Shown piece after piece: positions 18,811 through 53,615 of a stretch of 64,000 nt of DNA (its first letter is position 1; each line of letters opens with the position of its first letter). Source of the DNA: a virus; UHGV virus genome UHGV-0140522; one strand, 5' to 3'. The position numbers were made by a program, and so were the translations under genes. A model generated the notes under the pieces. That model saw nothing but the letters and a program-made list of their open reading frames with translations, was not told the DNA's origin and did no database searches.

Positions 18811-18837
18811 TTTAGGTAAGTACTTACCTATCTAGAT
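18811..18837. promoter_or_regulatory. perfect 18-bp palindrome TAGGTAAGTACTTACCTA between terL stop and portal start
   Basis: Contains the terL stop codon; 25 nt upstream of the portal ATG. Confidence 0.5.
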
Positions 18838-20084
18838 CCGCCAAGAATAACACGATTTTTCACCGGATACCTACGATGAACCGGATAACCCAACGCATCC
18901 GCACTGTGTTCGATGCCGCCAGTCTTATCCATATCGCGTGAGCCTGGCTTGTAGATCACCTTCTCCAGCGAGTCGATGAGGTGTTTGCACTTCGGATCGA
19001 TGTACAACCGGGTTTCGCCCGAGGCACTCATCAACATGCGGTTCACTGCGTTAACACGGTCTGCGATCGGCGGGTGCTTCTTCGGATAATCGACTCGAAG
19101 GAAACCTTTTTCCTTGAAGATATCGACGTCCGATTCACCGCGTGCGTGCTGGCGATACGCACCTGCCGGGTCAGGGAAGATAGTGACCTGAGACTTCCAG
19201 CGCCAGAAACGACGCTCCAGCTCATCACACACTTCAGCCGTGTTGGAAGAGAACAGCACAACCTCGTCCACGGCCCACAGCTCACCATTTGGCTGCGGCT
19301 GCAGGATGACCGATGACATAGGGTCGATGTTGAAGTCCTGACCAACCCAGATCGGCAGTTTCGGATTGAACTGGAGTGGCTTCACATGCACATTGCGGTC
19401 GAACGGGTAGTAAACGCGTCCGGACATGTTTTCGAAGCTGGCCAGGTATTCCTGCGCGAACGATTTAGGGTCCATATCGTTCTTCGCCGCTTCGATTTCC
19501 GCGCTCGGTACGAACGGAGAATCGGCCGTAACGAACTGCCAGCTCTTCCACTGCCCTTTGCGTTGCAAATCTATGTTCTGACCGATAGTCCACAGCTTGT
19601 GGAACTCGGAGAAGCCTTTTGGCGTACCGATGATCAGCGCACCGCCACGGGTAGAGGACAGTGTCGGACGCAGTACCTTGTACCAGGTGTCAGGCTTCAT
19701 ATCCTGAAATTCATCGAGCACCACGAAGTGCAGTGCCACACCACGAAGCGTATCGGGCTTATCCGCACCTTTCAGCGCGATTTCAGAGCCGTTCTTCAGC
19801 ACAATGGTCATCGTGGTGTCGTTTTTCTTACGAACCCATTTACGAGGCAGAACTTCCTGCAGGTCATCCCACAAGATCTGGCGAGCCATCTGGTAAGTCG
19901 GTGCGACGTACCAGACACGTTGCTTTTTCTCTTTGGCTGCCGCGCGGATGATGGTGGAGATCGACAACCGGGATTTACCCCAGCGTCGACCCGCACACAC
20001 CACTTTGAAACGATGTGGTGACTGGAAGACTTGCATCTGCCCAGAATGCAGCTGTACGAGACTCAGAGACGACGGGATGGCCAT
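18828..20084 (-). CDS. terL: terminase large subunit
   Basis: Walker A VVCAGRRWGKSRLS, Walker B VVLDEFQD, C-terminal acidic nuclease-like motifs; 418 aa. Confidence 0.8.
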   Translation of the reverse strand: MAIPSSLSLVQLHSGQMQVFQSPHRFKVVCAGRRWGKSRLSISTIIRAAAKEKKQRVWYVAPTYQMARQILWDDLQEVLPRKWVRKKNDTTMTIVLKNGSEIALKGADKPDTLRGVALHFVVLDEFQDMKPDTWYKVLRPTLSSTRGGALIIGTPKGFSEFHKLWTIGQNIDLQRKGQWKSWQFVTADSPFVPSAEIEAAKNDMDPKSFAQEYLASFENMSGRVYYPFDRNVHVKPLQFNPKLPIWVGQDFNIDPMSSVILQPQPNGELWAVDEVVLFSSNTAEVCDELERRFWRWKSQVTIFPDPAGAYRQHARGESDVDIFKEKGFLRVDYPKKHPPIADRVNAVNRMLMSASGETRLYIDPKCKHLIDSLEKVIYKPGSRDMDKTGGIEHSADALGYPVHRRYPVKNRVILGGSR

Positions 20085-20086
20085 AG

Positions 20087-20728
20087 TTAGACGCTCCCAT
20101 CACTTTCATCACCAGACGCGTCAGAATCGCCCTCTGCTTCGCTCAGTGCTTCCTCTTCGAGCGACTCAAGCAGATCGTCATCAATCAGATCCGGCTCATC
20201 ATCTTCCTTACGCAGCTGCGCCACCTGGGAAGGCGTAAGTTCGCCAAATACCAGGTTCGGGATTTCGTCGTCTTCGTTCTCTGCGCGATCCATACCGAGC
20301 GCTTTCGAGGATATTTCGAAGCACTTAGCGAGTGTGCCGCTGGCACGCTGGAGACTCTTCAGGTCATCTTCGATGGTTGCCAGTGGCTTGCCGTCCTTCT
20401 TGGCTGTGGCCACCTCATGCATCACCATTCGACCGAGTGCGAACGCCCAATCGTCGTAACGAGTCCGGCGCTCTTCGATTTTCTCTGCACGCGCCTTTGC
20501 ACGCAGCTCTGCGTCGGATTTGAGCGACTCGCGCACCATCTTCCCAACGGAGTCCGCGCCTTTCTCTAATCCACGCTTTTTGAAATGTCTGGAGAGCGTT
20601 TCACGACGAATGCCGTACTCTTCCTCCAGCTTGGAGAGTGTGTATTCACCGGAAGTCCACTTTGCTTCGGCTTCTGCCCACTCAGCTGGCGTCAGGCGAG
20701 TTTTGCTCTCGTCTTTTTCTACAGTCAT
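20087..20728 (-). CDS. terS: terminase small subunit (putative)
   Basis: 213-aa protein with an N-terminal HTH-like segment and acidic C-terminal tail, translationally coupled to terL. Confidence 0.5.
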   Translation of the reverse strand: MTVEKDESKTRLTPAEWAEAEAKWTSGEYTLSKLEEEYGIRRETLSRHFKKRGLEKGADSVGKMVRESLKSDAELRAKARAEKIEERRTRYDDWAFALGRMVMHEVATAKKDGKPLATIEDDLKSLQRASGTLAKCFEISSKALGMDRAENEDDEIPNLVFGELTPSQVAQLRKEDDEPDLIDDDLLESLEEEALSEAEGDSDASGDESDGSV

Positions 20729-21199: not shown

Positions 21200-22099
21200 T
21201 TATGCCGGTAATGCAATTTCAAGAGGTTTATTCAAAGGCTGTTTGTCGAATGCCAGCAGTGGCAACGTGTCCGGCAGCTGACGACCAAAGTCCGGGTTTC
21301 GGTACACGCCATACAGCGGAGAGGTGAAGCTCAGGTTGTGAATGTCCTTGAGCAGCTTCACGATGCTGGCCTCGTCCACCAGGCTGTCGGCAATGTCCTG
21401 AATCGTCGTGCCACGATTACGCCCGGCTTTGGCCAGGGAACTGTTCTTGTGGTAGTCAGCGACCAAATCACGCAGCGCACGACGACGGCGAGACTCACTC
21501 ATGGCGAACAGCTCTTTGACGATCGCTTCGTTGTCACCAGGGTCGGAACGGAAATGACGCTGGAAGACGCGCAACGCACTCTCGTAGCTCTTCGGACGCT
21601 CCGGACGGATGAACTGGAACCCTGCTTTCATGGCGAACGGGTTGTATTTGCTCATCGACGACTGGATCTCGATGATTGGCCGGTCGTGCATCCTGCTAAC
21701 CAGGTTAATCATTCGATAGGAGACGCCGACGCCGCGGTACTGAGTGTCCACAACGGAACGGCTGATCACTGCAAAGTTGTTGTTCACGTACCGGCCCCAA
21801 TACTGGTTGGCCACGGTGGTATTGGTGGTTGGCTTCAGCTTAGGAAACATGCGATGGCGAGGCGCCAGCAGCAGTTTCGGGTAAGCCATAACCACGACGC
21901 CCACCAGCCGGTCGTCCAGTTCGCAGCGATAATACGTTGGCGCGAACGGCTTACCATCCGTCTTGTAGTGCAGCGACTTCAGCGCGTGCCAGTCTTCAAC
22001 CGTGCCTTTGGTAACGGTCATACGCTCCAGAAAGTCCAGATGACGCGGGAACTCTTCCGGGCGGTAGCGTTTGATGATGATGTCTGTCATGTCGATCAC
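21200..22099 (-). CDS. GNAT-fold-like protein (acyl-CoA N-acyltransferase motif), last gene of the ParB-ABC operon
   Basis: Motif VVDTQYRGVGVSYRMINLV resembles the GNAT CoA-binding Q/RxxGxG/A block; 4-nt start overlap with the upstream ORF. Confidence 0.3.
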   Translation of the reverse strand: MIDMTDIIIKRYRPEEFPRHLDFLERMTVTKGTVEDWHALKSLHYKTDGKPFAPTYYRCELDDRLVGVVVMAYPKLLLAPRHRMFPKLKPTTNTTVANQYWGRYVNNNFAVISRSVVDTQYRGVGVSYRMINLVSRMHDRPIIEIQSSMSKYNPFAMKAGFQFIRPERPKSYESALRVFQRHFRSDPGDNEAIVKELFAMSESRRRRALRDLVADYHKNSSLAKAGRNRGTTIQDIADSLVDEASIVKLLKDIHNLSFTSPLYGVYRNPDFGRQLPDTLPLLAFDKQPLNKPLEIALPA

Positions 22100-28492: not shown

Positions 28493-28518
28493 AATAGCGC
28501 CCATAGTGGGCGCTTTTT
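28493..28518 (+). terminator. rho-independent terminator
   Basis: GCGCCCATAGTGGGCGC plus TTTTTT. Confidence 0.65.
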
Positions 28519-28540
28519 TCGTTTCAAGATCCGCACACCA

Positions 28541-28568
28541 TAACGCGCCATTGTTGGCGCGTTTTTTA
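28541..28568 (+). terminator. second tandem terminator
   Basis: AACGCGCCATTGTTGGCGCGTT plus TTTTTT. Confidence 0.55.
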
Positions 28569-28989
28569 TTGTCTGAAGTCAGCCAAAACAGACCCAAAAT
28601 AAGCGCCATAAACGCGCCAATTTAACGCGTTTTTATGTGTGGTGGTACATGCCCATTACCCACAATAAAAAACACGTTATAGCGCGTTTTACAGCGTTTT
28701 AGCGCGTGGCTTATTTTTTCGTGTCGTGGGCGTGATCGTCTGGCGATATCTGGCGACGTGATCCGCGCTATCCTTCGGGACGTGTCGGCAATATTGGCAT
28801 GATCCGTGGGCGCTCGCGTATCATTGGCACGTTGGCGTGACGTGTACGCGCTTGCAGTGGTTTACCCACGGATTCACATAATCACATAGCGAAAGCTATC
28901 TGGATGGCTCAGGGGCTGAAACCCCACCAGCGCTACCCCAGCGCCCCTGCGATATTTTCTGGCAGGATTCTGGGCTTCTCCCGCTCTGT

Positions 28990-29100
28990 TTTCTACATAA
29001 AGGCAAACCCAGCCGTTTCCCGAAAATTCCCTGGCCGTTTCCCTTCGGTTCCCCGGACAGCCCTCTGGCCGTTTCTGAATATCCCTGCGGCAGCTGGTGG
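28990..29100. repeat. three direct copies of GCCGTTTCC(C) in a non-coding stretch; related triplet at 32225-32300
   Basis: agCCGTTTCCCg / gGCCGTTTCCCt / gGCCGTTTCtg spaced 22-32 bp; no ORF. Confidence 0.5.
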
Positions 29101-29130
29101 ACGAAAAGAAAGGGGCGTTTCCAGCCCCTC
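29100..29130 (-). terminator. rho-independent terminator for the 29136..29618 gene
   Basis: Minus-strand hairpin AGGGGCTGGAAACGCCCCT followed by TTCTTTTCG. Confidence 0.55.
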
Positions 29131-29135
29131 CCCTC

Positions 29136-29618
29136 TTACTTGCCAGCCAGGATGTGAATGCGGTTCTTTCCGTACACCTCTTTCACGTAGTCCCCGCACG
29201 AGATACTCCACGAGTCGATTCCTGCTTCATAGATGACGTTTTTGCACTTGATGGCGTTGTTGGCGATGCGCATTCCCTCCCCCACTGCTTCCTGTTCGCT
29301 GAAGTCGAACCCGGATTCTGTTTTAACCCATAGCGCGATCTGCGTGGCGAACTCGATGAGTTTTGACTGGCAGAAGCGACCGCTGCGTACCGGGAAGATG
29401 AATACGCCAAATCCCGAGGTGGAGACATACGCTTTCTCAAATACGCGCTTATGGCGACGGTTGCAGATAATGTCATTGGTGATCTGCTGTTTCTCTTTCC
29501 CGGACAGCTCGATGGCTACATTGTCACGCCAGGCGCCCAGCACGCTTTTCTCGTTATCAGAGAACGTCACAGAAATATGGCCATGCGCAGGGGTGTTAAC
29601 AGTAGCGATAAAATTCAT
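29136..29618 (-). CDS. hypothetical early protein (160 aa)
   Basis: Early operator motif then AAAGGA 8 nt before the ATG. Confidence 0.5.
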   Translation of the reverse strand: MNFIATVNTPAHGHISVTFSDNEKSVLGAWRDNVAIELSGKEKQQITNDIICNRRHKRVFEKAYVSTSGFGVFIFPVRSGRFCQSKLIEFATQIALWVKTESGFDFSEQEAVGEGMRIANNAIKCKNVIYEAGIDSWSISCGDYVKEVYGKNRIHILAGK

Positions 29619-29631
29619 ATCATCAATCCTT

Positions 29632-29666
29632 TAAACAACTTGTTTTCTTGTTGGTTTAATTATCGC
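29632..29666 (-). promoter_or_regulatory. early promoter/operator motif copy
   Basis: TAAACAACTTGTTTTCTTGTTGGTTTAATTATCGC; 14 nt upstream of the start codon on the gene strand. Confidence 0.6.
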
Positions 29667-29734
29667 TACGCGCATAAGGTGTCCAAGCGTTCTGTTCCGG
29701 CAGCTGGTGGCCGGCAGGGAGTCGGAGAGTTGTT

Positions 29735-29770
29735 CGGTAGCCTGGCGGCAAGAGGTGGGTGTTTTTAGCC
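29735..29770. repeat. TAGCCTG-N-AAGAGGTGGGTGTTT element, also present 3 times at 32905-32995
   Basis: cggTAGCCTGgcggcAAGAGGTGGGTGTTTTtagcctg. Confidence 0.45.
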
Positions 29771-29823
29771 TGCGGGAAACAGGATGGTCATTTAAGGCCA
29801 CCAGCGTGGGTGGCCTCGTTCTC

Positions 29824-30105: not shown

Positions 30106-30123
30106 GTGCATATCCTCCATGCG

Positions 30124-30158
30124 TAAACATCTTGTTTTCTTGTTGGTGTAATTATCGC
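30124..30158 (-). promoter_or_regulatory. early promoter/operator motif copy
   Basis: TAAACATCTTGTTTTCTTGTTGGTGTAATTATCGC. Confidence 0.6.
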
Positions 30159-30231
30159 AATGTGGATAAGGCAAAAAACATTTTGTTATCGGGAATAAGA
30201 AAATGGCGCGGGGTACGCGCCATTGGAGGGA

Positions 30232-31067: not shown

Positions 31068-31078
31068 AATTCACTCCG

Positions 31079-31114
31079 TAAACAACTTGTTTTCTTATTG
31101 GTGTAAATAATACC
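31079..31114 (-). promoter_or_regulatory. early promoter/operator motif copy
   Basis: TAAACAACTTGTTTTCTTATTGGTGTAAATAATACC. Confidence 0.6.
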
Positions 31115-31207
31115 AGCGAGAAAACGGCTACAAAGCATAGCGTTACGGTGCTGCGCTGCCCCGGAGGTTGCAAACAGCAAAAAGCCACCGTGCTGGTGGT
31201 CTCACTC

Positions 31208-31652: not shown

Positions 31653-31668
31653 GTGTTTCTCCTTTGTC

Positions 31669-31703
31669 TAAACACGTTGTTTTCTTGTTGGTGTTATTAT
31701 CGC
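31669..31703 (-). promoter_or_regulatory. early promoter/operator motif copy (between divergent genes)
   Basis: TAAACACGTTGTTTTCTTGTTGGTGTTATTATCGC. Confidence 0.6.
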
Positions 31704-31794
31704 AATAAGAAAACGGGGAAAAAGAATTCCTTAAAGGCTGATGTGCTTGTGCCGATTTATTGCTATGTATGTATCTGGCTAACTCAGAGGGAAT

Positions 31795-32040
31795 GTGATG
31801 AGCACTAAAGACTACACAGACGGGTACTTCAGCATCGACGCCGAGAGAGGCGAGTTGCTACATGGCGGCATCACTGTCGGACGCGTCATTTTGGTTAACG
31901 GTCAGATTTACACAGAGCTGGACGATACCAGTTCAAGCGCACCTGTCGTCTCCGGCCCCTTCGGGACAAGAGAAGAGGCGCTCGATGATTTGTGGGACAA
32001 CAGGGACGATGCGAATCAGGGCAGTGAGATTTTCGAATAA
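31795..32040 (+). CDS. small acidic protein (81 aa), plus strand
   Basis: GAGGGAA RBS; divergent from the 31652 gene. Confidence 0.45.
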   Translation: MMSTKDYTDGYFSIDAERGELLHGGITVGRVILVNGQIYTELDDTSSSAPVVSGPFGTREEALDDLWDNRDDANQGSEIFE

Positions 32041-32049
32041 ACGTCCTCG

Positions 32050-33030
32050 GCGATTTCACCACCAAAACCCGTAACCCTTTACACTAGATCTGGCTTCCCG
32101 ATATGAGCGTGCGAAGCTGATCTGGTCTCAATGCTCAACTGCGGGATTCACCAATTCCCGCACTATTCAGGTGAATGAGGAAAAGGCATACTCCCGCAGC
32201 CGTCCCTCGCTCTGAACTGGGATGTACCCGTTTCCCGACCGGCAGCCAGCCTTTTCCCTGCGGCGATGCCCCCGTTCCTGAAAAGGAACATGGCCTTTTC
32301 CCTAGATGGCCCGAAGGCTGACCGAAGGGGTGGATAGGGACGTTACGGGGGATGAAAACTATGGCTTGAATTTCTACGGAGAAAGTAGCGATACCCCTCT
32401 TCCCCTTCCCACTTATACCTCCAGTTAAATCTCTACGGATTTTCTCTCCTGTGGACGTGTAAACCTTCCCCCTGATAACGCTCTATACGGCGAGTATTCC
32501 TTTGGGTGAAATGGGTGGTTTGTTCTCTCTACCGGCGTATGTGGTTTCGTTGTTCTTGAGGTGGTTCTTCTCTGTGTTTTCGTCTGGGTTGTTCTCGTCG
32601 TTTTGGTGAGTGTTCTTCTCCGTGTATAGAGTAATGGCATGTGCGCTTCTCTCTTCGTTTACGTGAAGAGATGGAAGTGTGGGTAATGGCAGTAGGGCGC
32701 TTTTGTTGTTCTCCGCATATGAAGTAATGGCGTTCCCTGCTATTCAGGAATTTGCGCTCCCTTTCGGGGTAATGGTGGGTAAACGAGATTGCGACGGTTC
32801 CTGTTCTGGTCTGGGTTTGTCCGGGGTTTCGTTCTGGCTGTTCTTCTCCGTGTATTGGGTAATGGCGTGTAGGGGTTTGCGTGCGCGAGCTGCGTTCTCG
32901 GTTGCCTGGGGAGATTAGGTGGGTGGTCTGTAGCCTGGGGCAAAGAGGTGGGTCTTTTCGGTAGCCTGACAGGAAGAGGTGGGTGTTTCCGGGATTGTGG
33001 GTAATGGCGTCTCTGGTTTTCCTGTGGGTG
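32050..33030 (-). ncRNA. candidate ~1 kb non-coding RNA / repeat-rich regulatory region
   Basis: No credible ORF; strong strand skew; six or more GTAATGGC repeats, a 226-bp internal duplication, three CCCACCTCTT...CAGGCTA repeats; an early motif copy at 33033-33070 is positioned to drive minus-strand transcription with no start codon or RBS after it. Confidence 0.4.
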
Positions 33031-33032
33031 TG

Positions 33033-33070
33033 GTTAACTTGTTTTCTTGTGCCTGAAAACAACTTGTTTA
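33033..33070 (-). promoter_or_regulatory. early promoter/operator motif (double partial copy) at upstream end of the non-coding region
   Basis: GTTAACTTGTTTTCTTGTGCCTGAAAACAACTTGTTTA. Confidence 0.5.
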
Positions 33071-33262
33071 GATGTCCAATATAACGCAACGGGAGCGCTT
33101 CTGAGCGTGTCTGTTTTTGGGTGGTATCACGAGTCGTTTTTGACGTTTTGGTCGCAGGGAGATGGATTCTGGTGCGTAGGATTTTGGGTATAAGAGATGG
33201 CTTGCGAAAACGTCAACTTTTTAGACCAAATCAAGGGAAAGCGTTGACTTTTCGTTGATGTG

Positions 33263-33295
33263 TTATTTATTTGTTTTCTTATGGGTGTAATTGGC
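33263..33295 (-). promoter_or_regulatory. degenerate early motif copy
   Basis: TTATTTATTTGTTTTCTTATGGGTGTAATTGG. Confidence 0.35.
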
Positions 33296-33412
33296 TTAAA
33301 TGCCTTGTCACGCCTGGGCTGGGGCAGGTTGGAGGGGTGGGGAAAGTGGCGATCAACGGACTCTTATAGAAATCCTCAATTTGTGACCGCCAATGTCAAC
33401 GAGTTGCAGCCG

Positions 33413-33982
33413 CTAGTTGTTCAGATAGGCATCAGGAACGCGGACATAAAAGTTTCTGTCGCCGGTCAGTTCCAGAGTAACGTTAATGTCATTGCCGTTA
33501 TCCAGCGTAGCCGTCGCTTTATAGAACTTGTCCGTCACCTTGTCCTGAATTGTCACCTTCATACATTTCGGCGCTGTGGTTCCGTTATTCTCTTTCAGAA
33601 TGGTCGTTACGAGAGGACAAGCCGCTTCTTCAAGAGCAACCTCTTCCTGGTGCGGGATGCCGATAAAGATGATGCAAGCCAGCGAAGCGACAATGACGAT
33701 AAACGGAATCCGACTCCCTTTTGTGATGGTCGCACGCTTCCAGAGATAGACCGGCAGGAAGAGTACGCCCCACAAAATGGCCGGTGGTTCATAGCCTGCT
33801 TCTGAGAGTGCCATTCTGTCGGCCACCAGCAAACCGATGACGGCAACACCGCCAATGACCATTGCGTAATTGAAGTACTCGTCTGGCGGTACGCCAAAGA
33901 AGAGAGGCAGGAACGCTAATATCCACGCATAAATATTTTTCAGAGGTTTTGTTTGTTGGTTCTGGGTTTCCATCACATCCAT
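33413..33982 (-). CDS. integral membrane protein (4 predicted transmembrane helices)
   Basis: Hydrophobic segments IYAWILAFLPLFF, VIGGVAVIGLLV, ILWGVLFLPVYLW, IVIVASLACIIFIGI. Confidence 0.55.
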   Translation of the reverse strand: MDVMETQNQQTKPLKNIYAWILAFLPLFFGVPPDEYFNYAMVIGGVAVIGLLVADRMALSEAGYEPPAILWGVLFLPVYLWKRATITKGSRIPFIVIVASLACIIFIGIPHQEEVALEEAACPLVTTILKENNGTTAPKCMKVTIQDKVTDKFYKATATLDNGNDINVTLELTGDRNFYVRVPDAYLNN

Positions 33983-34380: not shown

Positions 34381-34631
34381 GCCTTCTCCTTTGGAAACAG
34401 AATGTCGGCCGTGTCAGAAATGACATCCCAATTCACACCGACGCTGGCGTCATGGCACTCTTTGATTTTTCGCAAAACCTGAACGCACTGTTTGTCAGTC
34501 AGATCTGGTCGCACTTCACCTACATCTTCCTTGTGCCACATTACCATCAGCAGCGGCTCGTCTTCTGGGTAGTTCTCCAGCTTTTCGATGATGTCTTTTG
34601 CGGTTCCGAACATGATTAACTCCTTAAACAA
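34377..34631 (-). CDS. hypothetical early protein (84 aa)
   Basis: AAGGAG RBS; motif copy upstream. Confidence 0.5.
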   Translation of the reverse strand: MFKELIMFGTAKDIIEKLENYPEDEPLLMVMWHKEDVGEVRPDLTDKQCVQVLRKIKECHDASVGVNWDVISDTADILFPKEKA

Positions 34632-34657
34632 CTTGTTTTCTTGTTGGCGTTATTATC
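34624..34657 (-). promoter_or_regulatory. early promoter/operator motif copy
   Basis: TTAAACAACTTGTTTTCTTGTTGGCGTTATTATC. Confidence 0.6.
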
Positions 34658-34698
34658 TAAAATAACAAAAGGCAGAAAACAAGATGTTTAAGGGATGA

Positions 34699-36814: not shown

Positions 36815-38510
36815 CGCGTTTGAAAACGTATACGCTTACAGTGATTCCGGTGTCTTCAAACTCGTCAGTAAACGACTTCCCTTTGGCATAAACGTAATTA
36901 TCCAGCGTCATCCAGTTCAGAGCTGGCGCATCACCCGGCAGTACTGCCACCAGTCGCCCGCCGACTTTAAGATGCTCCAGCGCGGTCAGCGTATGCTCTC
37001 TGTGACGGCCAAGAGAGTAGGGCGGGTTCATGACGATTTTGTCGAACTGATAGCCTGCGTTGTCCTCAGACCACTTCATGAAGTCGCAGCAGACCGTATT
37101 TGTGTACCCCTTGCCAATCAGGATATCAGCGAAGAGAGGTGCGACTTCTATGCAGGTAACGTCTTCCGGATTGGCGTCGATGCAGGCCAACAGATCTCCG
37201 CGCCCGGCTTCAGGCTCCAGCAGCTTCTCACCTGACTTCAGCTCGATGGCTCTGGCAACGTACTCCGCTATCAAACGCGGGGTAGGGTAGAACTGGTGTG
37301 ATTTTGTATCCGGTATTAAGCCAGTGGCCACAATCGTATTTAGCGTATGACCGATCTCATACGGGAACTGCCAGTGCTTTTTCTCCTGCACACCGCCAAT
37401 GAAGTTCAGTGTGCGCTCAAGCTCTTCCACCTGTGACTTCTGTAGGTTGGAATCAGAGAAGTACCAGACGCCTTTGTCTTTGCTGAATCGCCCGTCGCGC
37501 AGCGCGGTACGAACCGGCTCGGAGATCGTCTTCTGGATTAACCCGAACTCTTTTGGTGCCGGTGTTTTGGGTGCAGTACGGCATGGCGCCGGGATTGCTG
37601 CAGGCATACTGTAAGCCAGCACCTCATTCAGCTTCCAGGCCACGTCAGGATGTATTTCAAAGTGAACGTTGCCGTTCTTGAACATCTTCACGCGCATCAG
37701 GTTTCCGTCGACATTCATCCAGTCACCGGTCTGGCAGTCGTTTGCCCGGTACGCAGCTGATAGCATCTCAGTTGTGCGGTTGATGGTGATGAACTCTTTG
37801 TGCGCGAAGAAATGAAGCATGACGCGCAGATCGTCGATGTAGTCCTCTTTCCGGTAGTTCACGCTCACGCTGTCCCGCCAGAACTCGGAAATGAAGTTGG
37901 CGATGATCAGACGCTCGCTAAAGCCGTTCGTCTTATTGGTCTTGTGGGCAGGACTCAGCGCCTTAAACAAGCCATACACGCGCTCAGAGAGATATTTGTG
38001 CCTGTCATTCAGCAGATTGAGCATCGTGGGGATGACCGTTTCTGCTTTGAACTCCGGCACGCCAACGAACTCCTTAACCTTCATCTGGTAGCCGGTTCTG
38101 TCAGTCCTGATGGTTTCCTGTTTGCCTTCGATGAACTGCTCACGCCACTCGTCGCGGCGGGAAGCTGGCATGATCAGCAGAACGTTTGTCATATCCGTGA
38201 CCTTCTTCCAGTACTCGGCCCAGATATTCTGTTTCACCCATTCAAGGTCGACCTTGTCCAGCCAGGCTCTGTTAAAGCGTGTGCGCTCGTCATCCGGCCG
38301 GTGGTTGAGTCGCAGTAGGCGGTTAATCATGTTGTGGCGTTCGTCGCCATAAATGAAGTCGTGAACCTGATGCATGAATGCGATCTCTTTCTCGCACTCG
38401 GCCACAATTTCGTGGATGACGTTCATTTCCTGCCGGTAGTCGATATCAGTGTTTGGGGTGATAGCGTCAATGATAGAAAGAGCTGTATTCATGATTGCAC
38501 CATTAAACAA
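36807..38510 (-). CDS. orphan N6-adenine DNA methyltransferase fused to a ~400-aa N-terminal domain of unknown function
   Basis: C-terminal motifs QFYPTP, EPEAGRGDLL, NPPYS (NPPY catalytic motif IV); N-terminal 400 aa without recognisable motif; no adjacent restriction endonuclease. Confidence 0.6.
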   Translation of the reverse strand: MFNGAIMNTALSIIDAITPNTDIDYRQEMNVIHEIVAECEKEIAFMHQVHDFIYGDERHNMINRLLRLNHRPDDERTRFNRAWLDKVDLEWVKQNIWAEYWKKVTDMTNVLLIMPASRRDEWREQFIEGKQETIRTDRTGYQMKVKEFVGVPEFKAETVIPTMLNLLNDRHKYLSERVYGLFKALSPAHKTNKTNGFSERLIIANFISEFWRDSVSVNYRKEDYIDDLRVMLHFFAHKEFITINRTTEMLSAAYRANDCQTGDWMNVDGNLMRVKMFKNGNVHFEIHPDVAWKLNEVLAYSMPAAIPAPCRTAPKTPAPKEFGLIQKTISEPVRTALRDGRFSKDKGVWYFSDSNLQKSQVEELERTLNFIGGVQEKKHWQFPYEIGHTLNTIVATGLIPDTKSHQFYPTPRLIAEYVARAIELKSGEKLLEPEAGRGDLLACIDANPEDVTCIEVAPLFADILIGKGYTNTVCCDFMKWSEDNAGYQFDKIVMNPPYSLGRHREHTLTALEHLKVGGRLVAVLPGDAPALNWMTLDNYVYAKGKSFTDEFEDTGITVSVYVFKRVK

Positions 38511-38538
38511 ATTGTTTTCTTGTTGGTGTTATTTTCCC
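38503..38538 (-). promoter_or_regulatory. early promoter/operator motif copy upstream of methyltransferase
   Basis: TTAAACAAATTGTTTTCTTGTTGGTGTTATTTTCCC. Confidence 0.6.
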
Positions 38539-38633
38539 AAACTAGAAAAGGCGTAAAAGCAGCATTCACAGGCGTTGCAGCTGATTTAAGGCGTAAAAAT
38601 GGGGGCTTTCGCCCCCTGTCGGCAGGTGAGAAA

Positions 38634-39233
38634 TTAGTGGTGTACGTGCTGCGTTTTGTGCGGCTGTTTGTTCAGGTCGTGGCGATGCGTAAGCTCGCGC
38701 ATCATGTCTTCAAGACGACTCTTGGTGTCGTCAAGCTGGTCGGCCATTGCCCCCAGCAGCTGGCGAACGGCCATCGGATCGTCGCTGTTCAGCTCAGGCA
38801 TTTTGAACCCAGACTGTGAAGACATCAGTTTGAAAGCGGCCAGCAACATCGCCAGAGAAGACTTCAACCCGGCGATTTCACGATCTTTGCTGGCGTTGGT
38901 TTCATCTGCCTTGACTGAATCCGGTGAGCACTTCGGCTTGCTTACCATTTCCAGAGTTGCCTGAAGTTTGTCGGCGCGTTCTTTCTCTTCCAGATACGCT
39001 TCGCCGAAATGACGCGCCAGCATCACAATTTCAATAGGATCATCAATCATGCTAGAGAACTTGAGAGCGCTGAAAAGGCGGTCGATAGGGGAGGCGTAGT
39101 CTTCGTGACCAACCACAAGACCCATGATCTCAACCAGTTCGGCCGCACCAACTTTTTTAATCACGCTTTCAACTTTGGCATTAGTTTTTTTGCATTTTTC
39201 GCACATGTGTTTTTTCCTTATGTTTTTAAACAA
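38634..39233 (-). CDS. hypothetical protein (199 aa) with N-terminal CxxC
   Basis: MCEKCKK near the N-terminus; His-rich C-terminus. Confidence 0.45.
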   Translation of the reverse strand: MFKNIRKKHMCEKCKKTNAKVESVIKKVGAAELVEIMGLVVGHEDYASPIDRLFSALKFSSMIDDPIEIVMLARHFGEAYLEEKERADKLQATLEMVSKPKCSPDSVKADETNASKDREIAGLKSSLAMLLAAFKLMSSQSGFKMPELNSDDPMAVRQLLGAMADQLDDTKSRLEDMMRELTHRHDLNKQPHKTQHVHH

Positions 39234-39262
39234 GTTGTTTTCTAGATGGCGTTATTATGGCG
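39226..39262 (-). promoter_or_regulatory. early promoter/operator motif copy
   Basis: TTAAACAAGTTGTTTTCTAGATGGCGTTATTATGGCG. Confidence 0.55.
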
Positions 39263-39323
39263 TGACTGAAAAGGTGGGCAAACGCTACGTAAAGGCGGAC
39301 GCCCACGCTGAAGGTCTTCATTG

Positions 39324-41147: not shown

Positions 41148-42350
41148 TTAGTGTACCTTCCTATTTTGACGGGATGTTGCATATGTCATCACTACCGCCC
41201 CCAGTAGTAACAAACCACTTAAACCAAATGCACTTCTCCATCCCAGACTGTCGAATGCCAGACCTCCAGCCGTTGAACCAAGCGCAATCGATAGCTGGAT
41301 CACCGCAACCATGAGGCCACCACCCCTCTCTGCATCTTCGGGTAACGCTCGTGCTATCCATGTCCACCATCCTGTTGGCGCAGCCGTCGCAAGTAGCCCC
41401 CACAGGCTTAATAATACGGCAACGGCCCAGATGTGGTGTCCGACCAGCAGTAACGCACCAGTAATCGCGGCCATAAGCAACGGGATCATGATTAAGGTCT
41501 TGTAAAATTTGGCGTTCAGGAATGTTGAGACGATCATTGTGCCGACAAAACCTGCTATGCCTATTGCAAGCAAAATCAGAGAAAGGTTAGAAGGTCCCAC
41601 TCTGGTGACGCTCTCCAGAAAGGGGCGCACGTAGGTAAACAAAGCAAACTGTCCCATAAAGAAGAGCCCGCAGGCAAGCATTCCCGTTGGTACGATGGCA
41701 ACGCTGAACAGACGAAGCACAGACCCCTGTGGTTTTTGTGTTTTATCGCTTTCCATCGAAGGCAGGCTGAACCATTGCCAGATGAACGCAGCTATCGCAA
41801 GAGGGACGAGACATAAAAAGGCCCCACGCCAACCGACCGTTGTCCCCAGATAACTACCAAGCGGCGCAGCCACAACGGTGGCCAGCGCGTTACCGCCGTT
41901 AAAAATTGCCAGTGCGCGGGGAACCTGGTGCTGTGGCACGAGCCGAATGGCGGTTGCAGCCGACATTGACCAGAACCCTCCGATGACGACGCCAATCAGA
42001 GCCCTCCCCAGCATATAAATCGGATAGTCAGGCGCCATGGTGATAACTAACCCTGATATGGCCATTAAGACCGTTAGCCCAAGCAGAAGATATTTACGAT
42101 TCAGGTCTCCGGCAATATGGGAGATAGTCAGACTGGTCAGCACTGCCAGTGCGCCAGAGACGGCAATTCCTTGCCCTGCCAACCCTTCGGTAACGTGCAA
42201 ATCGCGGGCAATGAGCGTAAGCAGGCTGACTGGCATAAACTCAGAAGCGATCAGCACAAACACGCAAAGCGTCATGGCAAATACGCCGCTCCAGTATGCA
42301 TGCTTTTTTTCGTATGATGGTTTTAGACTTACAGTGGACATTATTAGCAT
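41148..42350 (-). CDS. MFS efflux transporter, NepI (purine ribonucleoside efflux) family-like
   Basis: 12-transmembrane DHA1 MFS; N-terminal region closely resembles E. coli NepI as I recall it ([38 protein letters not shown]). Confidence 0.8.
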   Translation of the reverse strand: MLIMSTVSLKPSYEKKHAYWSGVFAMTLCVFVLIASEFMPVSLLTLIARDLHVTEGLAGQGIAVSGALAVLTSLTISHIAGDLNRKYLLLGLTVLMAISGLVITMAPDYPIYMLGRALIGVVIGGFWSMSAATAIRLVPQHQVPRALAIFNGGNALATVVAAPLGSYLGTTVGWRGAFLCLVPLAIAAFIWQWFSLPSMESDKTQKPQGSVLRLFSVAIVPTGMLACGLFFMGQFALFTYVRPFLESVTRVGPSNLSLILLAIGIAGFVGTMIVSTFLNAKFYKTLIMIPLLMAAITGALLLVGHHIWAVAVLLSLWGLLATAAPTGWWTWIARALPEDAERGGGLMVAVIQLSIALGSTAGGLAFDSLGWRSAFGLSGLLLLGAVVMTYATSRQNRKVH

Positions 42351-42518
42351 CCCTTAATATCGAACCAGCCAGATTCAGGCGCAGTCGGGTCAGAAGTTAT
42401 TCAGGGAATAACGACATAATAGGTGGGTGAGAATATGGGGCGATGTGACATATTCGGCGTCACACCAGGCAGGTAAAAGCCACCCGTTTATGACAGGTGG
42501 CCTGGTAAACTTTTCGGG

Positions 42519-43667
42519 TTACCTTAAGTTTGCTTTGAAAAATTGCTCAAATTTGGCAAATGGGATCTTACCCGCAACGTTGTCGTACAGATCAACATGG
42601 TTTGCCCCAGGGACAATCACTAACTCTTTCTCTTTGCTGCCGATTGCCTTAAAGGCATCTTCAGCAAAATAGCGTGAATGGGCTTTTTCGCCGGTCACGA
42701 TGAGTGTAGGGATAGTAACTTCATTGGCGTAACTCAGCAGCGGCATATTCATAAATGACAGCGGCATGGTTGCGTTCCAGGCACCGGTTGAGTTGACCGA
42801 ACGCTCATGGAAACCACGCGGCATGCGGTAATAATCAAAGAACTCTTTCAATACTGGGTTAGGATTCGCGGGCAGAGTTTCCGGCAGAATACGATCGGAA
42901 GCGGTGACGTTGCCCTTCTCATCAACATAAATGTCATGCCCGCCTGGCGCGAAAGCGCCATTTTCCGCATCCTTCCAGCGCTGCGTGTTCAGATACTGCA
43001 ATACGGCACGACGATCGGCAGTGGTATAGCGGTCTTTGCCATCGCCCACGCCATGCCCCATCGCACGGCTCATGTCATACATCACGCTGGTCGCCACCGC
43101 CTTGACACGCGTGTCCATCGCGGCGTCGTTTAAGGCCATGCCGCCCCATCCGCAGATACCGAGCAGCCCGATACGGTTGCGATCCACCTCTTTTTGCAGG
43201 CCTAAGAAATCAACCGCCGCGCTGAAATCCTCGGTGTTGATATCCGGAGATGCGACGTTGCGCGGGTAGCCGCCGCTTTCGCCCGTGTATGAAGGGTCGA
43301 AAGCCAGAGTGACAAATCCCTGTTCAGCCAGCGTCTGCGCATACAGGCCGCTGGATTGCTCTTTCACCGCCCCGAAGGGGCCGCTAACAGCAATAGCTGC
43401 CAGCTTGCGATCACCACGATCCTTCGGGATGTAGAGATCCCCGACTAAGGTGATCCCGTATCGGTTCGGAAAGGTCACCTTACGGTGATCAACTTTCGTG
43501 CTCTCAGCAAAAGTTTTATCCCATTTTTCGACCAGCGAAACGGGCGCGTTCGGATTGGCTGTATCAGCGTAACTCATATTTGTGACTCCACTTAATGATG
43601 CGCATAACAACAGGGCGGGTATCGCAGTTGTCAATTTTTGGGTGAAAGCAGTCATCAAAATCCCCTT
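42519..43667 (-). CDS. secreted alpha/beta hydrolase (dienelactone hydrolase/YcjY-like)
   Basis: Signal peptide MKGILMTAFTQKLTTAIPALLLCASLSGV; nucleophile elbow GICGWGG; track ORF 42519..43733 has an upstream extension. Confidence 0.65.
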   Translation of the reverse strand, partial: KGILMTAFTQKLTTAIPALLLCASLSGVTNMSYADTANPNAPVSLVEKWDKTFAESTKVDHRKVTFPNRYGITLVGDLYIPKDRGDRKLAAIAVSGPFGAVKEQSSGLYAQTLAEQGFVTLAFDPSYTGESGGYPRNVASPDINTEDFSAAVDFLGLQKEVDRNRIGLLGICGWGGMALNDAAMDTRVKAVATSVMYDMSRAMGHGVGDGKDRYTTADRRAVLQYLNTQRWKDAENGAFAPGGHDIYVDEKGNVTASDRILPETLPANPNPVLKEFFDYYRMPRGFHERSVNSTGAWNATMPLSFMNMPLLSYANEVTIPTLIVTGEKAHSRYFAEDAFKAIGSKEKELVIVPGANHVDLYDNVAGKIPFAKFEQFFKANLR

Positions 43668-43825
43668 CATAAAACGTGCCAGAAACAGGTTTCCTACGGA
43701 CAACGCTGCTGTGCTTTGTTGCAATGCGCACATTATAGTTAGCAGAAATAGTACTGATTAGAGGGTGAAAAATGCTAAGATTGATAACATATTGTTCTGA
43801 ATTGTGATGCGGCAGCAGGGGAAGG

Positions 43826-44713
43826 ATGATGGCGAAACGGGAAAACTATAACGATCTCTATCTGTTTATGCAGGTCGTGCGAGAAGGGAGTTTTACTGCC
43901 GCCGCGCAGAGGCTTGGCCTGGCGCAGTCAGGAATTAGTCGTGCAGTGCGCGAGCTGGAAGAACGACTGGGCGTGCAGCTTCTGGTGCGTACCACGCGCA
44001 AGTTATCGCTCACCCATGCCGGCGAGTTGCTCTATCGAACCGTCGAATCTGGATTTGACGCTTTAGATATGGGGCTTGCCACGCTGGCCCATTATCGCCA
44101 TACCCCATCGGGTACGGTCCGTATTAATGCCAGTCAGCACGCCATTGATAAAGTGCTGCTGCCGAAGCTGGCGGTGTTTAAACAACGCTACCCAGATATT
44201 CGGCTGGAGCTCATCAGCGAAAGCCGGTTTGTCGATATTATTGCTGAGCGCTTCGATGCCGGTATACGTCTGGGCTCGGAAGTAGGTAGCGGTATGGTCG
44301 CTGTGCGCATTTCGCCCGATATGGAGATGGCCATTGTCGGCACGCCCGAGCACTTTCGTCGCTACGGATTTCCGCAAACTCCCTCCGATTTAGTTATTCA
44401 TCCCTGCATCGCTTACCAGTTTGGAGACGGCAGCCTGTATGCATGGGAACTCAATCAAGACGGTAAAAAGATAACCCATCAACCTCAGGGACAATGGGCC
44501 TTTGCTGACAGCTATATGGAAGCCAAAGCCGCCCGGCTAGGCCTGGGACTGGCTTATGTTCCGGAGGAATTAGTTTCTGATGATATAGAACAGGGGGCGC
44601 TGATCAGAGTTTTGCAATGCTACAGTCAGCGCCTGGAAGGTTCATATCTCTATTATCCGCACCGCAATGTGTCACCCGCTCTAAGAGCGGTTATCGATAC
44701 ATTGAGAATTTAA
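43826..44713 (+). CDS. LysR-family transcriptional regulator
   Basis: N-terminal HTH LYLFMQVVREGSFTAAAQRLGLAQSGISRAVRELEERLG, LysR substrate-binding fold length; divergent from the hydrolase. Confidence 0.85.
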   Translation: MMAKRENYNDLYLFMQVVREGSFTAAAQRLGLAQSGISRAVRELEERLGVQLLVRTTRKLSLTHAGELLYRTVESGFDALDMGLATLAHYRHTPSGTVRINASQHAIDKVLLPKLAVFKQRYPDIRLELISESRFVDIIAERFDAGIRLGSEVGSGMVAVRISPDMEMAIVGTPEHFRRYGFPQTPSDLVIHPCIAYQFGDGSLYAWELNQDGKKITHQPQGQWAFADSYMEAKAARLGLGLAYVPEELVSDDIEQGALIRVLQCYSQRLEGSYLYYPHRNVSPALRAVIDTLRI

Positions 44714-45335
44714 GGGATAAAGATGAGGTGGTTCGCAGGCCTGGGTAATAGTTGGAAAACAACGTCCGCTCCTGGCACATTGAAGACATTACGATGGGCG
44801 ATTTTTCCCCTCACGCGTGTGCGTAAATATTAAAATTTTTTCTAGAAAAGAAAAACTTACTTCCCAGAACAGGTTTTAATAAAACCTGAACTGAACGAAC
44901 GAAGTGAGTGAAGTTCACCTCGAACGAAGTGAGAGGTTGTCTTTTCAGGTAATACTCTCCCAGGGAGGTGAGTACAAAATTCCCTCACCAACCTGGTCGT
45001 TACATAACCTGAAAAGTTATGACCTAAGTCTACTGCCAGCTTAGGCTTGGGAAGTTATGGATGACAGCACCCCAGAACCGAGATCTTCCCACACTTTATG
45101 AAGGGGAGTACTGGATTCAACCTCTCGAAACACTCCAGACTCGACAATCATAAAGTGACCTTTCTCTCTGCCCACTTTGGTTCCCCCTTCCCCAACCCCT
45201 AAACGGTGCTGGTTCTACGCTGGTAGTGAGCTTTTTTAAACCTGACGCCAGTGACGCTATCCCCCACCCATCAGGTCGAGCTGCCGGAATCAATCCGGAA
45301 AGCGGGTAGATTTTATCACTGGCGATCTGCGTTTT

Positions 45336-45360
45336 AAATGGTAAGTACTTACCGATTATT
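45336..45360. promoter_or_regulatory. AT-rich palindrome family member at right edge of cargo island
   Basis: aaatGGTAAGTACTTACCgattatt. Confidence 0.45.
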
Positions 45361-45586
45361 TCGATTGATTATTTTCTCGACCATGAAGCTGGACGTTCAG
45401 GGCAAACACCTCATTGATGAGTTCCCCTAACAGCTGCTCGACCAGCTCTTTGTGCTCACCTGAGTGAAGGCACTTGAGCGACCATTCGTAGAGACTGAAA
45501 GCCTTATCGCGATCTTTCATCATGTCGCGTACTTTGGTCAGAAAATCGCTCTCAACGAGCGCTACGACGTTCGTCGGGTATACCAT
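45356..45586 (-). CDS. hypothetical small protein (76 aa)
   Basis: Lies about 116 nt downstream of the second copy of the large palindrome block, the same spacing as terS from the first copy. Confidence 0.4.
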   Translation of the reverse strand: MVYPTNVVALVESDFLTKVRDMMKDRDKAFSLYEWSLKCLHSGEHKELVEQLLGELINEVFALNVQLHGRENNQSK

Positions 45587-45654
45587 GATAGTTTTCCTTA
45601 CTGTGGTTCATAAAATCGATTCTAGAGCGTCTGGAGAGGGGTTCCAGTGGGTTC

Positions 45655-45785
45655 TGGAGGTGTAAAACGGTCTGGGAGTTGTTTGGAAATCACGTCTTAA
45701 AAAGCCTGCGTCTGTATATATTAATAATTAGTACTTAGTTATTTATATATACGGAAGCAGGTTCTCAAACTAACTCCCAGACTGG
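45655..45785. repeat. large palindrome block, copy 2 (degenerate)
   Basis: Arms AAGCCTGCGTCTGTATATAT and ATATATACGGAAGCAGGTTC around a 23-nt spacer containing AGTACTTAG, then TCAAACTAACTCCCAGAC; flanks also similar to copy 1. Confidence 0.6.
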
Positions 45786-45788
45786 TGT

Positions 45789-46406
45789 TTACGCTGCCTT
45801 TTTACGTGGTCTCTTCTTCCTGACAACATTGGCAGGATCATAACCACCCAGCTTTTTCATCACCGCCAGCGGTATCTTGCTGATGGTGTGCCCAGCTTCC
45901 TGACAGTAGCCACGGAAGATAAGCAACATGCTACCACCAGGGTTGATGTTCACCTCCACCAGCCCAAGTTCAACATCCGGCTCAACGAACGCCACGCGGC
46001 CGCCAGACAAGATGACGGTTTCGTTGGCGCATTCAGCCGCACGCTCGTACCACTGCGTATCGAGGGATTGTGGTATCAACATGACTGTCGTCACTCCACG
46101 CGCCTGCTCGCGAATGGCTGCGTCTATCCAGGGGGTGATTTTGGAGTAGGGCGGGTTAAGGAACGCCACAGTGCCAGGTTCTCCCCAGCTGCACTTGAGC
46201 GCATCACGCTCAACACCGATAAAGTTCGGCAGGAGGGCATTATCTTTGTTGCAGGCGACGTCCACATCGAACTTTACGCCTATGTAACGTTGGATGGCGA
46301 CAAACAACCACTGCGGTGTGCGCCAAAGGTCGCGAAGAGAGGCATCACGCTCTCGCTTTTTGATTTTTTCGGCTGCGATCATTACTTTGTTCTGATAGGT
46401 AAACAC
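45789..46406 (-). CDS. dam: DNA N6-adenine methyltransferase (phage Dam family)
   Basis: LWRTPQWLF and FLNPPYS motifs; alternative ATG at 46382 because the listed start is a GTG inside a palindrome. Confidence 0.6.
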   Translation of the reverse strand: MFTYQNKVMIAAEKIKKRERDASLRDLWRTPQWLFVAIQRYIGVKFDVDVACNKDNALLPNFIGVERDALKCSWGEPGTVAFLNPPYSKITPWIDAAIREQARGVTTVMLIPQSLDTQWYERAAECANETVILSGGRVAFVEPDVELGLVEVNINPGGSMLLIFRGYCQEAGHTISKIPLAVMKKLGGYDPANVVRKKRPRKKAA

Positions 46407-53537: not shown

Positions 53538-53573
53538 TTTAAACAAATTGTTATCTTATTGGTTTAAATAAGG
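53538..53573 (-). promoter_or_regulatory. early promoter/operator motif copy upstream of nrdB
   Basis: TTTAAACAAATTGTTATCTTATTGGTTTAAATAAGG. Confidence 0.55.
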
Positions 53574-53615
53574 TGCTCAACTCAATGAAAAGGTGGGGAT
53601 TTCTCCCCACGCTCA

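Follow-up and report, generated by a model that had tools for sequence, protein, structure and literature searches.

The question raised by this locus is why a phage-plasmid of the SSU5/pHCM2 type should carry, within a long run of minus-strand early genes, some 1.1–1.4 kb of DNA without a gene. The locus is the unannotated gap at 32041–33412 of a 64,000-nucleotide stretch of UHGV virus genome UHGV-0140522; we refer to that whole stretch as the window and to the element in the gap as the tract. In our view it is best explained as a conserved non-coding control tract that borders a variable cargo slot and a block of small early genes. As to how it acts, we tentatively favour an untranslated, A/C-rich transcript tract which would be made in the lytic phase and would engage Rho, insulating the early lytic genes from cargo transcription. 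Positions 32040–33420 are 100% identical to plasmid pRHBSTW-00524_2 of Citrobacter sp. RHBSTW-00524 and 93.8% identical to Salmonella phage SSU5. The gap is bordered in the matching record by a plus-strand gene that ends at 32040 and by a minus-strand gene whose open reading frame (ORF) ends at 33413. An earlier model-made description of these letters, the sequence-only reading, had delimited the element as 32050–33070. The non-coding gap is indeed there, but its right end was set too short, as conservation continues to ∼33410; the conserved ∼1.1 kb runs from 32300 to 33410.

Sensitive BLAST searches matched the tract in 858 PLSDB plasmids, from Klebsiella, Escherichia, Enterobacter, Salmonella, Citrobacter, Cronobacter and other hosts, and in 12 phage records; nearly all of the matching records listed leave it unannotated. 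Sixty-two distinct copies, gathered from plasmid and phage records and 67 IMG/VR contigs sharing a 22-nt pattern, are 61–95% identical to the window. The tract is retained in every lineage sampled, and more consistently than the genes on either side of it. Among ten relatives its mid, core and right parts persist at 68–97% identity over 48–100% coverage (at least 85% in most comparisons), while nine of these ten have another gene in the upstream position and retention of the downstream genes is incomplete. Motif islands within it reach 0.9–0.95 column conservation in sequences that are 61–67% identical overall. Given that the tract is kept while its flanking genes are swapped, we conclude that it is under constraint and marks the edge of a cargo slot. 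It appears to be among the most consistently retained non-coding parts of the family, at the junction of cargo and early lytic genes.

The upstream gene differs by lineage: it encodes a 189-aa protein here (33413–33982), a 396-aa protein in pHCM2, a coiled-coil protein in the Escherichia coli LF82 phage-plasmid Cyrano, and elsewhere a 172-aa hypothetical protein beside a GIY-YIG nuclease gene, or small ORFs. This turnover marks a cargo-exchange hotspot bounded by the conserved tract. Comparison of the window with its best-matching record, NZ_CP056422.1, shows a 1-nt offset, with single-base offsets near 27 kb and 40 kb, and a loss of collinearity at ∼42000–46000 caused by a ∼3 kb indel in the IS66/betT cargo region; the window thus derives from a close relative of that record.

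Yersinia pestis plasmid pMT1 provides a natural deletion. It retains a second, left-hand non-coding region that we describe below, and has lost the tract together with ∼25 kb of early genes at an IS1541; in pMT (NZ_CP045164.1) the IS1541 stands at 8497–9364, where relatives carry the tract, a methyltransferase gene and nucleotide-metabolism genes. Since pMT1 is a stable plasmid that keeps its IncFIB replicon and replicates without the tract, the tract is not needed for plasmid replication or partition. Thus it is not a plasmid-maintenance element.

The tract is non-coding, as had been suggested from the absence of a credible gene in the stretch, and several observations support this. The longest candidate, a 186-aa minus-strand ORF (32529..33089), begins with TTG, has no Shine-Dalgarno sequence, and in SSU5, which is 94% identical here, retains only 96 aa. 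Among the relatives the longest open frame switches both frame and strand, 199 of the 318 indels counted in pairwise comparisons would break the triplet frame, and variable sites are spread evenly over the three codon positions (34/29/28, p = 0.71). The repeat GCCATTAC is translated in two different frames within the single 186-aa ORF. Pfam and PHROG searches of the tract returned no match. In a strand so poor in T and G, stop codons are scarce by composition alone.

It is this composition that sets the tract apart. From 32500 to 33300 the plus strand has a GC skew of +0.2 to +0.4 and an AT skew of −0.3 to −0.5, and the resulting keto skew is the most extreme in the window at the 78-, 300- and 600-nt scales (z = 5–6). 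The plus strand had been described as GT-rich and C-poor; the bias is stronger than that statement implied. The skew begins just past the stop codon of the upstream gene, at ∼33350, is present in all relatives (GC skew 0.24–0.45) and survives masking of the motifs, and the commonest substitution in the tract is the G↔T transversion. Because the skew is kept in all lineages, between the motifs as well as in them, and by way of G↔T exchange, we conclude that the composition itself is selected, on one strand, in favour of a CA-rich minus strand. RNA from the minus strand of the core would be ∼36% A, 32% C, 16% G and 16% U. Over 800 nt its median C/G ratio is 1.87, with every 78-nt window reaching at least 1.05, against a median of 0.95 and a 95th percentile of 1.64 for the window as a whole.

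Such an RNA would hardly fold. Over 762 nt the predicted folding energy is −141.9 kcal/mol for the minus-strand RNA and −236.1 for the plus-strand RNA; against a background of −57.7 ± 9.9 per 200 nt in the window, the tract is ∼3 SD weaker. Shuffled sequences fold as well as the minus-strand RNA does (z = −1.1, as against +0.7 for the plus strand). A and C cannot pair with one another, so these data are most simply read as selection for a single strand that cannot fold, which points to a minus-sense RNA or, less likely, to single-stranded DNA. A structured long non-coding RNA finds no support. The RNAalifold structure conservation index is ∼0–0.1 on both strands of 32450–33030 (15 non-redundant sequences; the sliding-window scan used column shuffles as its control), and with the covariance models of Rfam 15, those of GOLLD, ROOL and ToxI included, the window yielded no hit that reached the gathering threshold, and 32000–33450 yielded none even at E≤10. 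One short hairpin (32405–32379) alone is conserved. A long inverted repeat, GAAAAGTCAAC...GTTGACGTTTTC (33200–33252, apparently 12 bp), was considered as a stem and rejected, its changes in relatives not being compensatory.

If the minus strand is transcribed, from where would transcription start? The sequence-only reading had named a copy of the early promoter motif at 33033–33070. A 61-nt nhmmer profile of the eight full early promoter-leader units recovers those eight at E<1e-10; the unit consists of an upstream GCCKTTTY-like box, an extended −10 (TGCGATAAT) and then ACCAACAAGAAAACAAGTTGTTTA just before the ribosome-binding site. At the tract it finds fragments only, one inverted at 33055–33071 (E = 0.05) and one at 33050–33036 (E = 3.7), with the TGCGATAAT −10 absent; a preceding TTGCGTTATATT is −10-like in the window lineage alone. 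Another candidate lies further upstream, where a promoter-like pair with an inferred start near 33181 is preserved as TTGACG-18-TATA(C/T)(C/T) in 61 of 62 relatives; the 18-nt spacing stays fixed while the spacer itself takes 14 different sequences. Fixed hexamers around variable spacers are, in sequence terms, the conservation pattern of a promoter. The conserved hairpin lies ∼780 nt downstream and, depending as it does on G·U pairs, can form only in the minus-strand sense. A U-rich tail follows it in the E. coli and Klebsiella lineages, where it looks like a terminator, and a terminator scan calls it in Cyrano. Transcription of the region as a CA-rich minus-strand RNA, as first proposed, is consistent with the promoter-like pair and the hairpin, although the promoter originally named lacks the early −10; a minus-strand transcription unit is plausible.

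The eight early units, each ∼60 nt and all on the minus strand, lie at 29631–29689, 30123–30179, 31078–31134, 31668–31725, 34623–34681, 38503–38561, 39226–39284 and 53539–53593. The idea that the core of the tract is an array of degenerate units of this kind was rejected, as the profile has no match in 32500–33030. Two back-to-back intrinsic terminator hairpins (gcgcccatagtgggcgctttttt at 28497–28520 and gcgccattgttggcgcgtttttt at 28545–28567) close plus-strand genes and face the minus-strand early genes.

Is the tract expressed in the plasmid state? Cyrano carries it at 68% identity. Neither of the two ORFs annotated within it, CYRAN_103 and CYRAN_104, rises clearly above the detection floor in LB, medium or macrophages, while the upstream CYRAN_102 is expressed with log2 values of up to 9.2 (PMC9928086, S1 table). 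A terminator scan found no intrinsic terminator between CYRAN_102 and CYRAN_103, and the fall in expression over this interval lends indirect support to Rho-dependent termination. With its ORFs at the floor in lysogens, the tract does not give rise to an abundant RNA in the plasmid state, and cargo-gene transcription appears not to cross it. In the same study CYRAN_43 (Cyrano OV696614.1, 40268–40822) is listed in LF82 lysogens at 723-fold above prophage background, far above the other Cyrano genes of that table (PMC9928086). It is annotated as a hypothetical protein beside an integrase and a putative repressor, and may hide an abundant RNA or an immunity function; its homologous position lies outside the window, at ∼21307–21852 of NZ_CP056422.1.

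We infer transcription of the tract, its direction and the involvement of Rho from the features above. Rho prefers C-rich, G-poor, unstructured, untranslated RNA (rut sites). A long, untranslated, unfolded, C-rich and G-poor RNA would therefore be a Rho substrate, and we propose that the tract serves to load Rho; the predicted minus-strand RNA has the features by which rut sites are recognised, being untranslated, richer in C than in G over at least 70–80 nt, and little structured. Transcription would proceed leftwards, by read-through from the upstream gene and from the promoter-like site at 33217–33188, giving an untranslated, A/C-rich, G/U-poor product unable to fold. In the plasmid state, Rho loading would halt transcription of the cargo genes before it reached the early lytic genes; after induction, the tract's own transcript would run to the hairpin at 32405–32379. 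The single-stranded motifs GCCAUUAC and ACCCACCUCUU-N6-CAGGCUA could then be sites for a factor that modulates Rho loading, while the left 22-bp boxes and the right TTGAC/palindrome blocks are probably protein-binding DNA. The tract may well be composite, with DNA sites at both ends and a transcribed core, and the same transcript tract may act after induction as a regulated checkpoint or as an RNA product.

Several points weigh against this proposal. The −10-like TATACC lacks the usual final T, and a generic promoter scan reports no site, the pair being missed because the last −10 base is C; sigma-70 promoters have their hexamers 16–18 bp apart, with A at position 2 and T at position 6 of the −10. 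In the window lineage the tail of the hairpin is U-poor and no U-tail follows it. The expression data are per-gene values from lysogens of the 68%-identical Cyrano, from a library that may not be strand-specific, and they place the ORFs of the tract at or near the floor. A Rho terminator needs neither 800 nt nor conserved motifs (the rut sites of lambda are ∼20 nt each), a Rho-sensitive transcript from its own promoter serves no obvious purpose, and the 22-bp phasing of the left boxes and the inverted GCCATTACCCACAAT fit DNA-binding proteins better than RNA.

GTAATGGC occurs seven times in the window against 1.25 expected, with five copies in the tract (32631, 32683, 32724, 32859 and 33001); six had been reported, and of these five are exact while the one near 32768 is GTAATGGT. 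TAGCCTG-N6-AGAGGTGGGT has five matches against 0.14 expected: three stand in tandem at 32902, 32931 and 32962, as previously noticed, and those outside the tract number two, at 29738 and 29766. On the minus strand the tandem units read ACCCACCTCTT-N6-CAGGCTA. The core also holds GTTCTTCTC-type units, and all repeat families inside the tract share one orientation. The internal duplication of 226 bp reported earlier comes down to a direct repeat of 32 nt, whose copies at 32611 and 32839 lie 228 nt apart and agree at 29/32 positions; a third copy is at 32704. The DNA between the copies is no more alike than shuffled sequence (similarity 0.548 against 0.521 ± 0.015). Comparison of the repeats by eye with CRISPR arrays, type III antitoxins (ToxI-like), nut-like sites and G-quadruplexes yielded nothing convincing, Rfam being the only formal test applied. 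At the left end, the 22-bp boxes vary in copy number from 0 to 7 among the relatives, changing by whole units, and the 62 relatives together contain 160 box spacings of exactly 22 bp, a phasing seen in all lineages. Each box has a ∼10-bp core, repeated directly at the 22-bp period, and together they amount to only ∼80 bp of the tract. A CCGTTTCCC triplet shared with the left region had been noted: the sharing, with 29012–29043 (GCCKTTTCCC), is confirmed, but the boxes in the tract are four and phased, not three. Their resemblance to the GCCKTTTY box upstream of the early −10 is only suggestive, this being a low-information pattern found at three to four of the eight promoters and in the opposite orientation. 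The features are collected in Table 1.

Table 1. Coordinates of features in and around the tract (window numbering)
Feature	Position	Strand	Details
Four 22-bp-phased boxes, CAGCC(G/T)TTTCCC-like	32227..32302	+	32227, 32249, 32271 (degenerate), 32293
Two conserved blocks between box array and skewed core	32340–32420, 32470–32560		Column conservation 0.8–0.9; first block includes CTTATACC at 32412
Purine-rich/pyrimidine-rich hairpin	32379..32405	−	31–36 of 37 distinct sequences paired at each of 9 pairs, via G-C/G-U/A-U changes
Core tract	32500..33300	−	Plus strand 32% G, 36% T, 16% A, 16% C; minus strand A/C-rich
Three tandem 29–31-nt units, (T)TAGCCTG-N6-A(G/T)AGGTGGGT	32895..32989	+	2–3 units kept in all lineages (alignment)
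Early-motif fragments	33036..33088	−	CAAGAAAACAAGTT at 33050–33036; palindrome AAACAAGTTGTTT at 33069–33057
Promoter-like pair	33188..33217	−	−35 TTGACG (33217–33212), 18-nt spacer, −10-like TATACC (33193–33188)
Nearly invariant block	33200..33300		TTGAC/GTCAAC hexamers in both orientations; partial early-motif copy 33268–33294
Most conserved block, GGCGATCAACG...TCTTATAG...GTGACCGCCAATGTCAACG	33340..33400		Invariant 9-bp inverted repeat

There is a second explanation, nearly as likely as the engagement of Rho: that the tract is a cis-acting DNA element, a site of nucleoprotein assembly built of arrays of protein-binding motifs, with transcription incidental. Lytic replication might begin there; the element might act as a sink for the protein that regulates the early promoters, or as its looping anchor; or it might control injection in the manner of the untranslated repeat regions of T5. 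The exact 22-bp phasing of the CAGCCKTTTCCC boxes and the whole-unit shifts in their number are what such an element would predict. Furthermore, over the whole plasmid the box, GTAATGGC and TAGCCTG..AGAGGTGGGT are confined to the tract and the second non-coding region (28650–29790) ∼3.2 kb away, so placed that they flank small early genes; boxes stand there at 29012, 29034 and 29068, and the GCCATTACCCACAAT copy is inverted, and conserved. The right end of the tract is also of this character, with invariant TTGAC/GTCAAC hexamers in both orientations and an operator-like palindrome (AAACAACTTGTTT at 33057–33069) that recurs at 12 intergenic sites of the plasmid. The most conserved block lies directly past the stop of the upstream minus-strand gene (ORF 33413..33982) and holds the pattern common to the 67 IMG/VR contigs. 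The anatomy parallels that of the untranslated repeat regions of T5 (doi 10.1101/866236), and non-phage pMT1 lost the tract together with the early region.

Double-stranded sites, however, leave unexplained the keto skew between the motifs and its upkeep by G↔T exchange, and the spacings of GTAATGGC (52, 41, 44, 91 and 142) and of the tandem units (29 and 31) show no helical phasing. For an iteron-type lytic origin, the phased direct repeats are present (four boxes with a 22-bp period), but the tract has neither an AT-rich unwinding stretch (its GC content is 0.46–0.58) nor a consensus DnaA box (TTATNCACA), and no initiator gene was found adjacent to it, the neighbouring genes being of unknown function. 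Replication genes are more than 40 kb away, and cumulative GC skew, which was computed over the whole plasmid and is uninformative here, shows no origin-like change. Nor was any homologue of the T5 A1, A2 or dmp genes, or any similarity to the T5 injection stop signal (iss) region, found. A second origin, as mentioned earlier, may still apply to the phased left boxes; it is not the RepA origin, and pMT1 replicates in the absence of the tract. The plasmid's own RepA (IncFIB) origin was considered and set aside, since its iterons, of the ATCCACTGTAGAGAG type, flank repA at record positions ∼111.8–112.6 kb and 1.05–1.66 kb, ∼34 kb from the tract. A packaging-related site, also mooted, finds no support in the position of the terminase genes (∼18828–20728), roughly 11 kb or more away. 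Comparison of the terminase gave no assignment of packaging type, so that this DNA might yet be the first to enter.

The left-hand region deserves a note of its own. The stretch 28610–29135 (with 29700–29790) is a second conserved non-coding region, found in 769 plasmids including Y. pestis pMT1, and has the look of an origin: a near-DnaA box inside GCCCATTACCCACAAT (28651–28666), an A/T-rich stretch with 3.3 copies of CGTTTTAGCG (28675–28707), three TGGCR pairs ∼10 bp apart (28741–28840), and three GCCGTTTCCC boxes. Two further observations concern sites scattered over the plasmid. The 112.6-kb plasmid contains 32 copies of the Chi sequence GCTGGTGG, where chance would give ∼3.4; those at 29091–29098 and 29701–29708 in the window adjoin both box arrays, and in relatives the left part of the tract has one Chi (GGGCTGGTGGGCAG). 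A 13-bp palindrome, AAACAANTTGTTT, is found without mismatch at 12 intergenic sites over the whole plasmid, some of them near genes for a parA-like ATPase and a DnaB-like helicase (record positions 37483 and 33713), and so it may be an operator or a centromere-like site rather than a purely early signal.

To return to a Rho-engaging transcript tract, a simple terminator would leave the size of the tract, its conserved repeats and its promoter-like site unexplained, and for this reason we keep apart the possibility of an RNA that acts in trans. This would be a lytic-phase RNA of ∼0.8 kb serving as a sponge or decoy for an RNA-binding protein, with Rho itself, a cold-shock-type protein, ribosomal protein S1 with 30S subunits, or a defence sensor as candidate partners. 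We consider it unlikely, if still worth carrying, and rather less likely again in its more specific form, in which induction would yield an abundant, structure-free A/C-rich RNA that decoys Rho or another single-strand RNA-binding host factor. The tract does have the look of a bounded unit, with its promoter-like pair, its structure-free body and, at the 3′ end, a hairpin resembling a terminator in the E. coli and Klebsiella lineages, and its motifs are repeated three to six times in one orientation and conserved across lineages; ACCCACCUCUU may resemble the anti-Shine-Dalgarno end of 16S ribosomal RNA. Against this, Rho should terminate an untranslated C-rich RNA too early for it to accumulate, the skew runs upstream of the putative start to ∼33350, and no partner protein suggests itself, all neighbouring genes being of unknown function.

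Two explanations fare worse. It is improbable that the tract is a decaying relic without present function, left over, for instance, from promoter-leader units that were duplicated or from a gene since lost: early-motif fragments are present, and the number and length of the units vary through indels, but a relic would hardly be retained in all sampled lineages while flanking genes come and go, nor keep motif islands and a skew that is actively maintained, and the early-motif profile is silent over 32500–33030. Least of all do we credit a protein, whether the His-rich 186-aa ORF or a small hydrophobic plus-strand peptide, since the open frame of 186–189 aa in the window and ∼7 close relatives, and the short ORFs annotated here in SSU5 and Cyrano, must be set against the truncation in SSU5, the switching of frame and strand, the non-triplet indels, the even spread of variable sites, the repeat read in two frames, the unsupported TTG start, the empty domain searches and a scarcity of stops to be expected from composition alone.

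Clinical Klebsiella, E. coli, Enterobacter and Salmonella commonly harbour phage-plasmids of the SSU5/pHCM2 type, and these carry resistance genes. To our knowledge, hardly any work has addressed their lysis-lysogeny control or their lytic replication. A Rho-loading insulator or checkpoint would explain how cargo is expressed from the plasmid without switching on the phage. A decoy RNA would disable termination and polarity in the host, allowing read-through of the long, gap-rich early operons, and would do with RNA what P4 Psu and other Rho-inhibiting proteins do; either it or a lytic origin would offer a handle for controlling induction. An A/C-only strand selected over 0.8 kb is in any case an unusual signature, and one that is easily testable.

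Searches of the literature found no description of this region, no lytic-phase transcriptome of SSU5-type elements and no matching family. Better known systems may be compared. The sponge RNAs CsrB/RsmZ and CrcZ resemble the putative RNA of the tract in being non-coding and in carrying multiple short single-stranded motifs. They differ in being 100–400 nt long with their motifs in hairpin loops or A-rich stretches, whereas the tract has no array of GGA or AAnAAnAA motifs, no Rfam match and no binding partner, and its RNA is itself putative. Iteron arrays (P1 oriR/incA, RepFIB, lambda ori) share with the left boxes the form of direct repeats in two clusters flanking a block of genes. The boxes, however, are unrelated to the RepA iterons of the plasmid, have no adjacent initiator gene, AT-rich unwinding element or DnaA box, and make up only a small part of the tract.

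We know of no two-step injection among SSU5-type phages. The pre-early repeat regions of T5 offer a parallel in anatomy: conserved untranslated repeat regions there share inverted elements 1.8–4.3 kb apart among poorly conserved pre-early ORFs (doi 10.1101/866236). Like the tract, they are kilobase-sized, non-coding, rich in repeats and better conserved than the small ORFs of unknown function around them, and in both cases two such regions share elements a few kb apart, partly inverted (doi 10.1101/866236). The tract differs in having no paired consensus DnaA boxes, 131-bp inverted repeats, A1/A2/dmp homologues or sequence similarity, and homology to the T5-type injection stop signal was rejected on the absence of the DnaA pairs, the A1/A2 genes and the similarity. 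The iss region of T5 in turn has no long keto skew, only a GC-skewed part of ∼400 bp; this part, at 9850–10300 of AY692264.1, has a GC skew of +0.45 to +0.50 and no AT skew, a partial compositional parallel.

For the Rho-engaging transcript tract that we favour, the comparison is with rutA/rutB–tR1 of lambda, downstream of cro. The lambda sites are ∼20 nt each and flank one nut hairpin, whereas the tract is 700–800 nt long, bears its own promoter-like site and specific repeats that persist from lineage to lineage, and has no identified N-like antiterminator or nut-type hairpin, its Rho dependence being a prediction. Both, however, are untranslated and lie directly past a stop codon in a phage early unit, and both would yield C-rich, G-poor, weakly folding RNA; rutB is ATCAAATTAAACCACACCTA and rutA contains CGCTCTTACAC, and the minus strand of the tract has GTTAACCACACCCACAGG and a repeated CACCTCTT. 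The tract is apparently undescribed, and its most likely mechanisms are of kinds already known; what is unusual is their form, a 0.8-kb A/C-only strand with conserved repeats.

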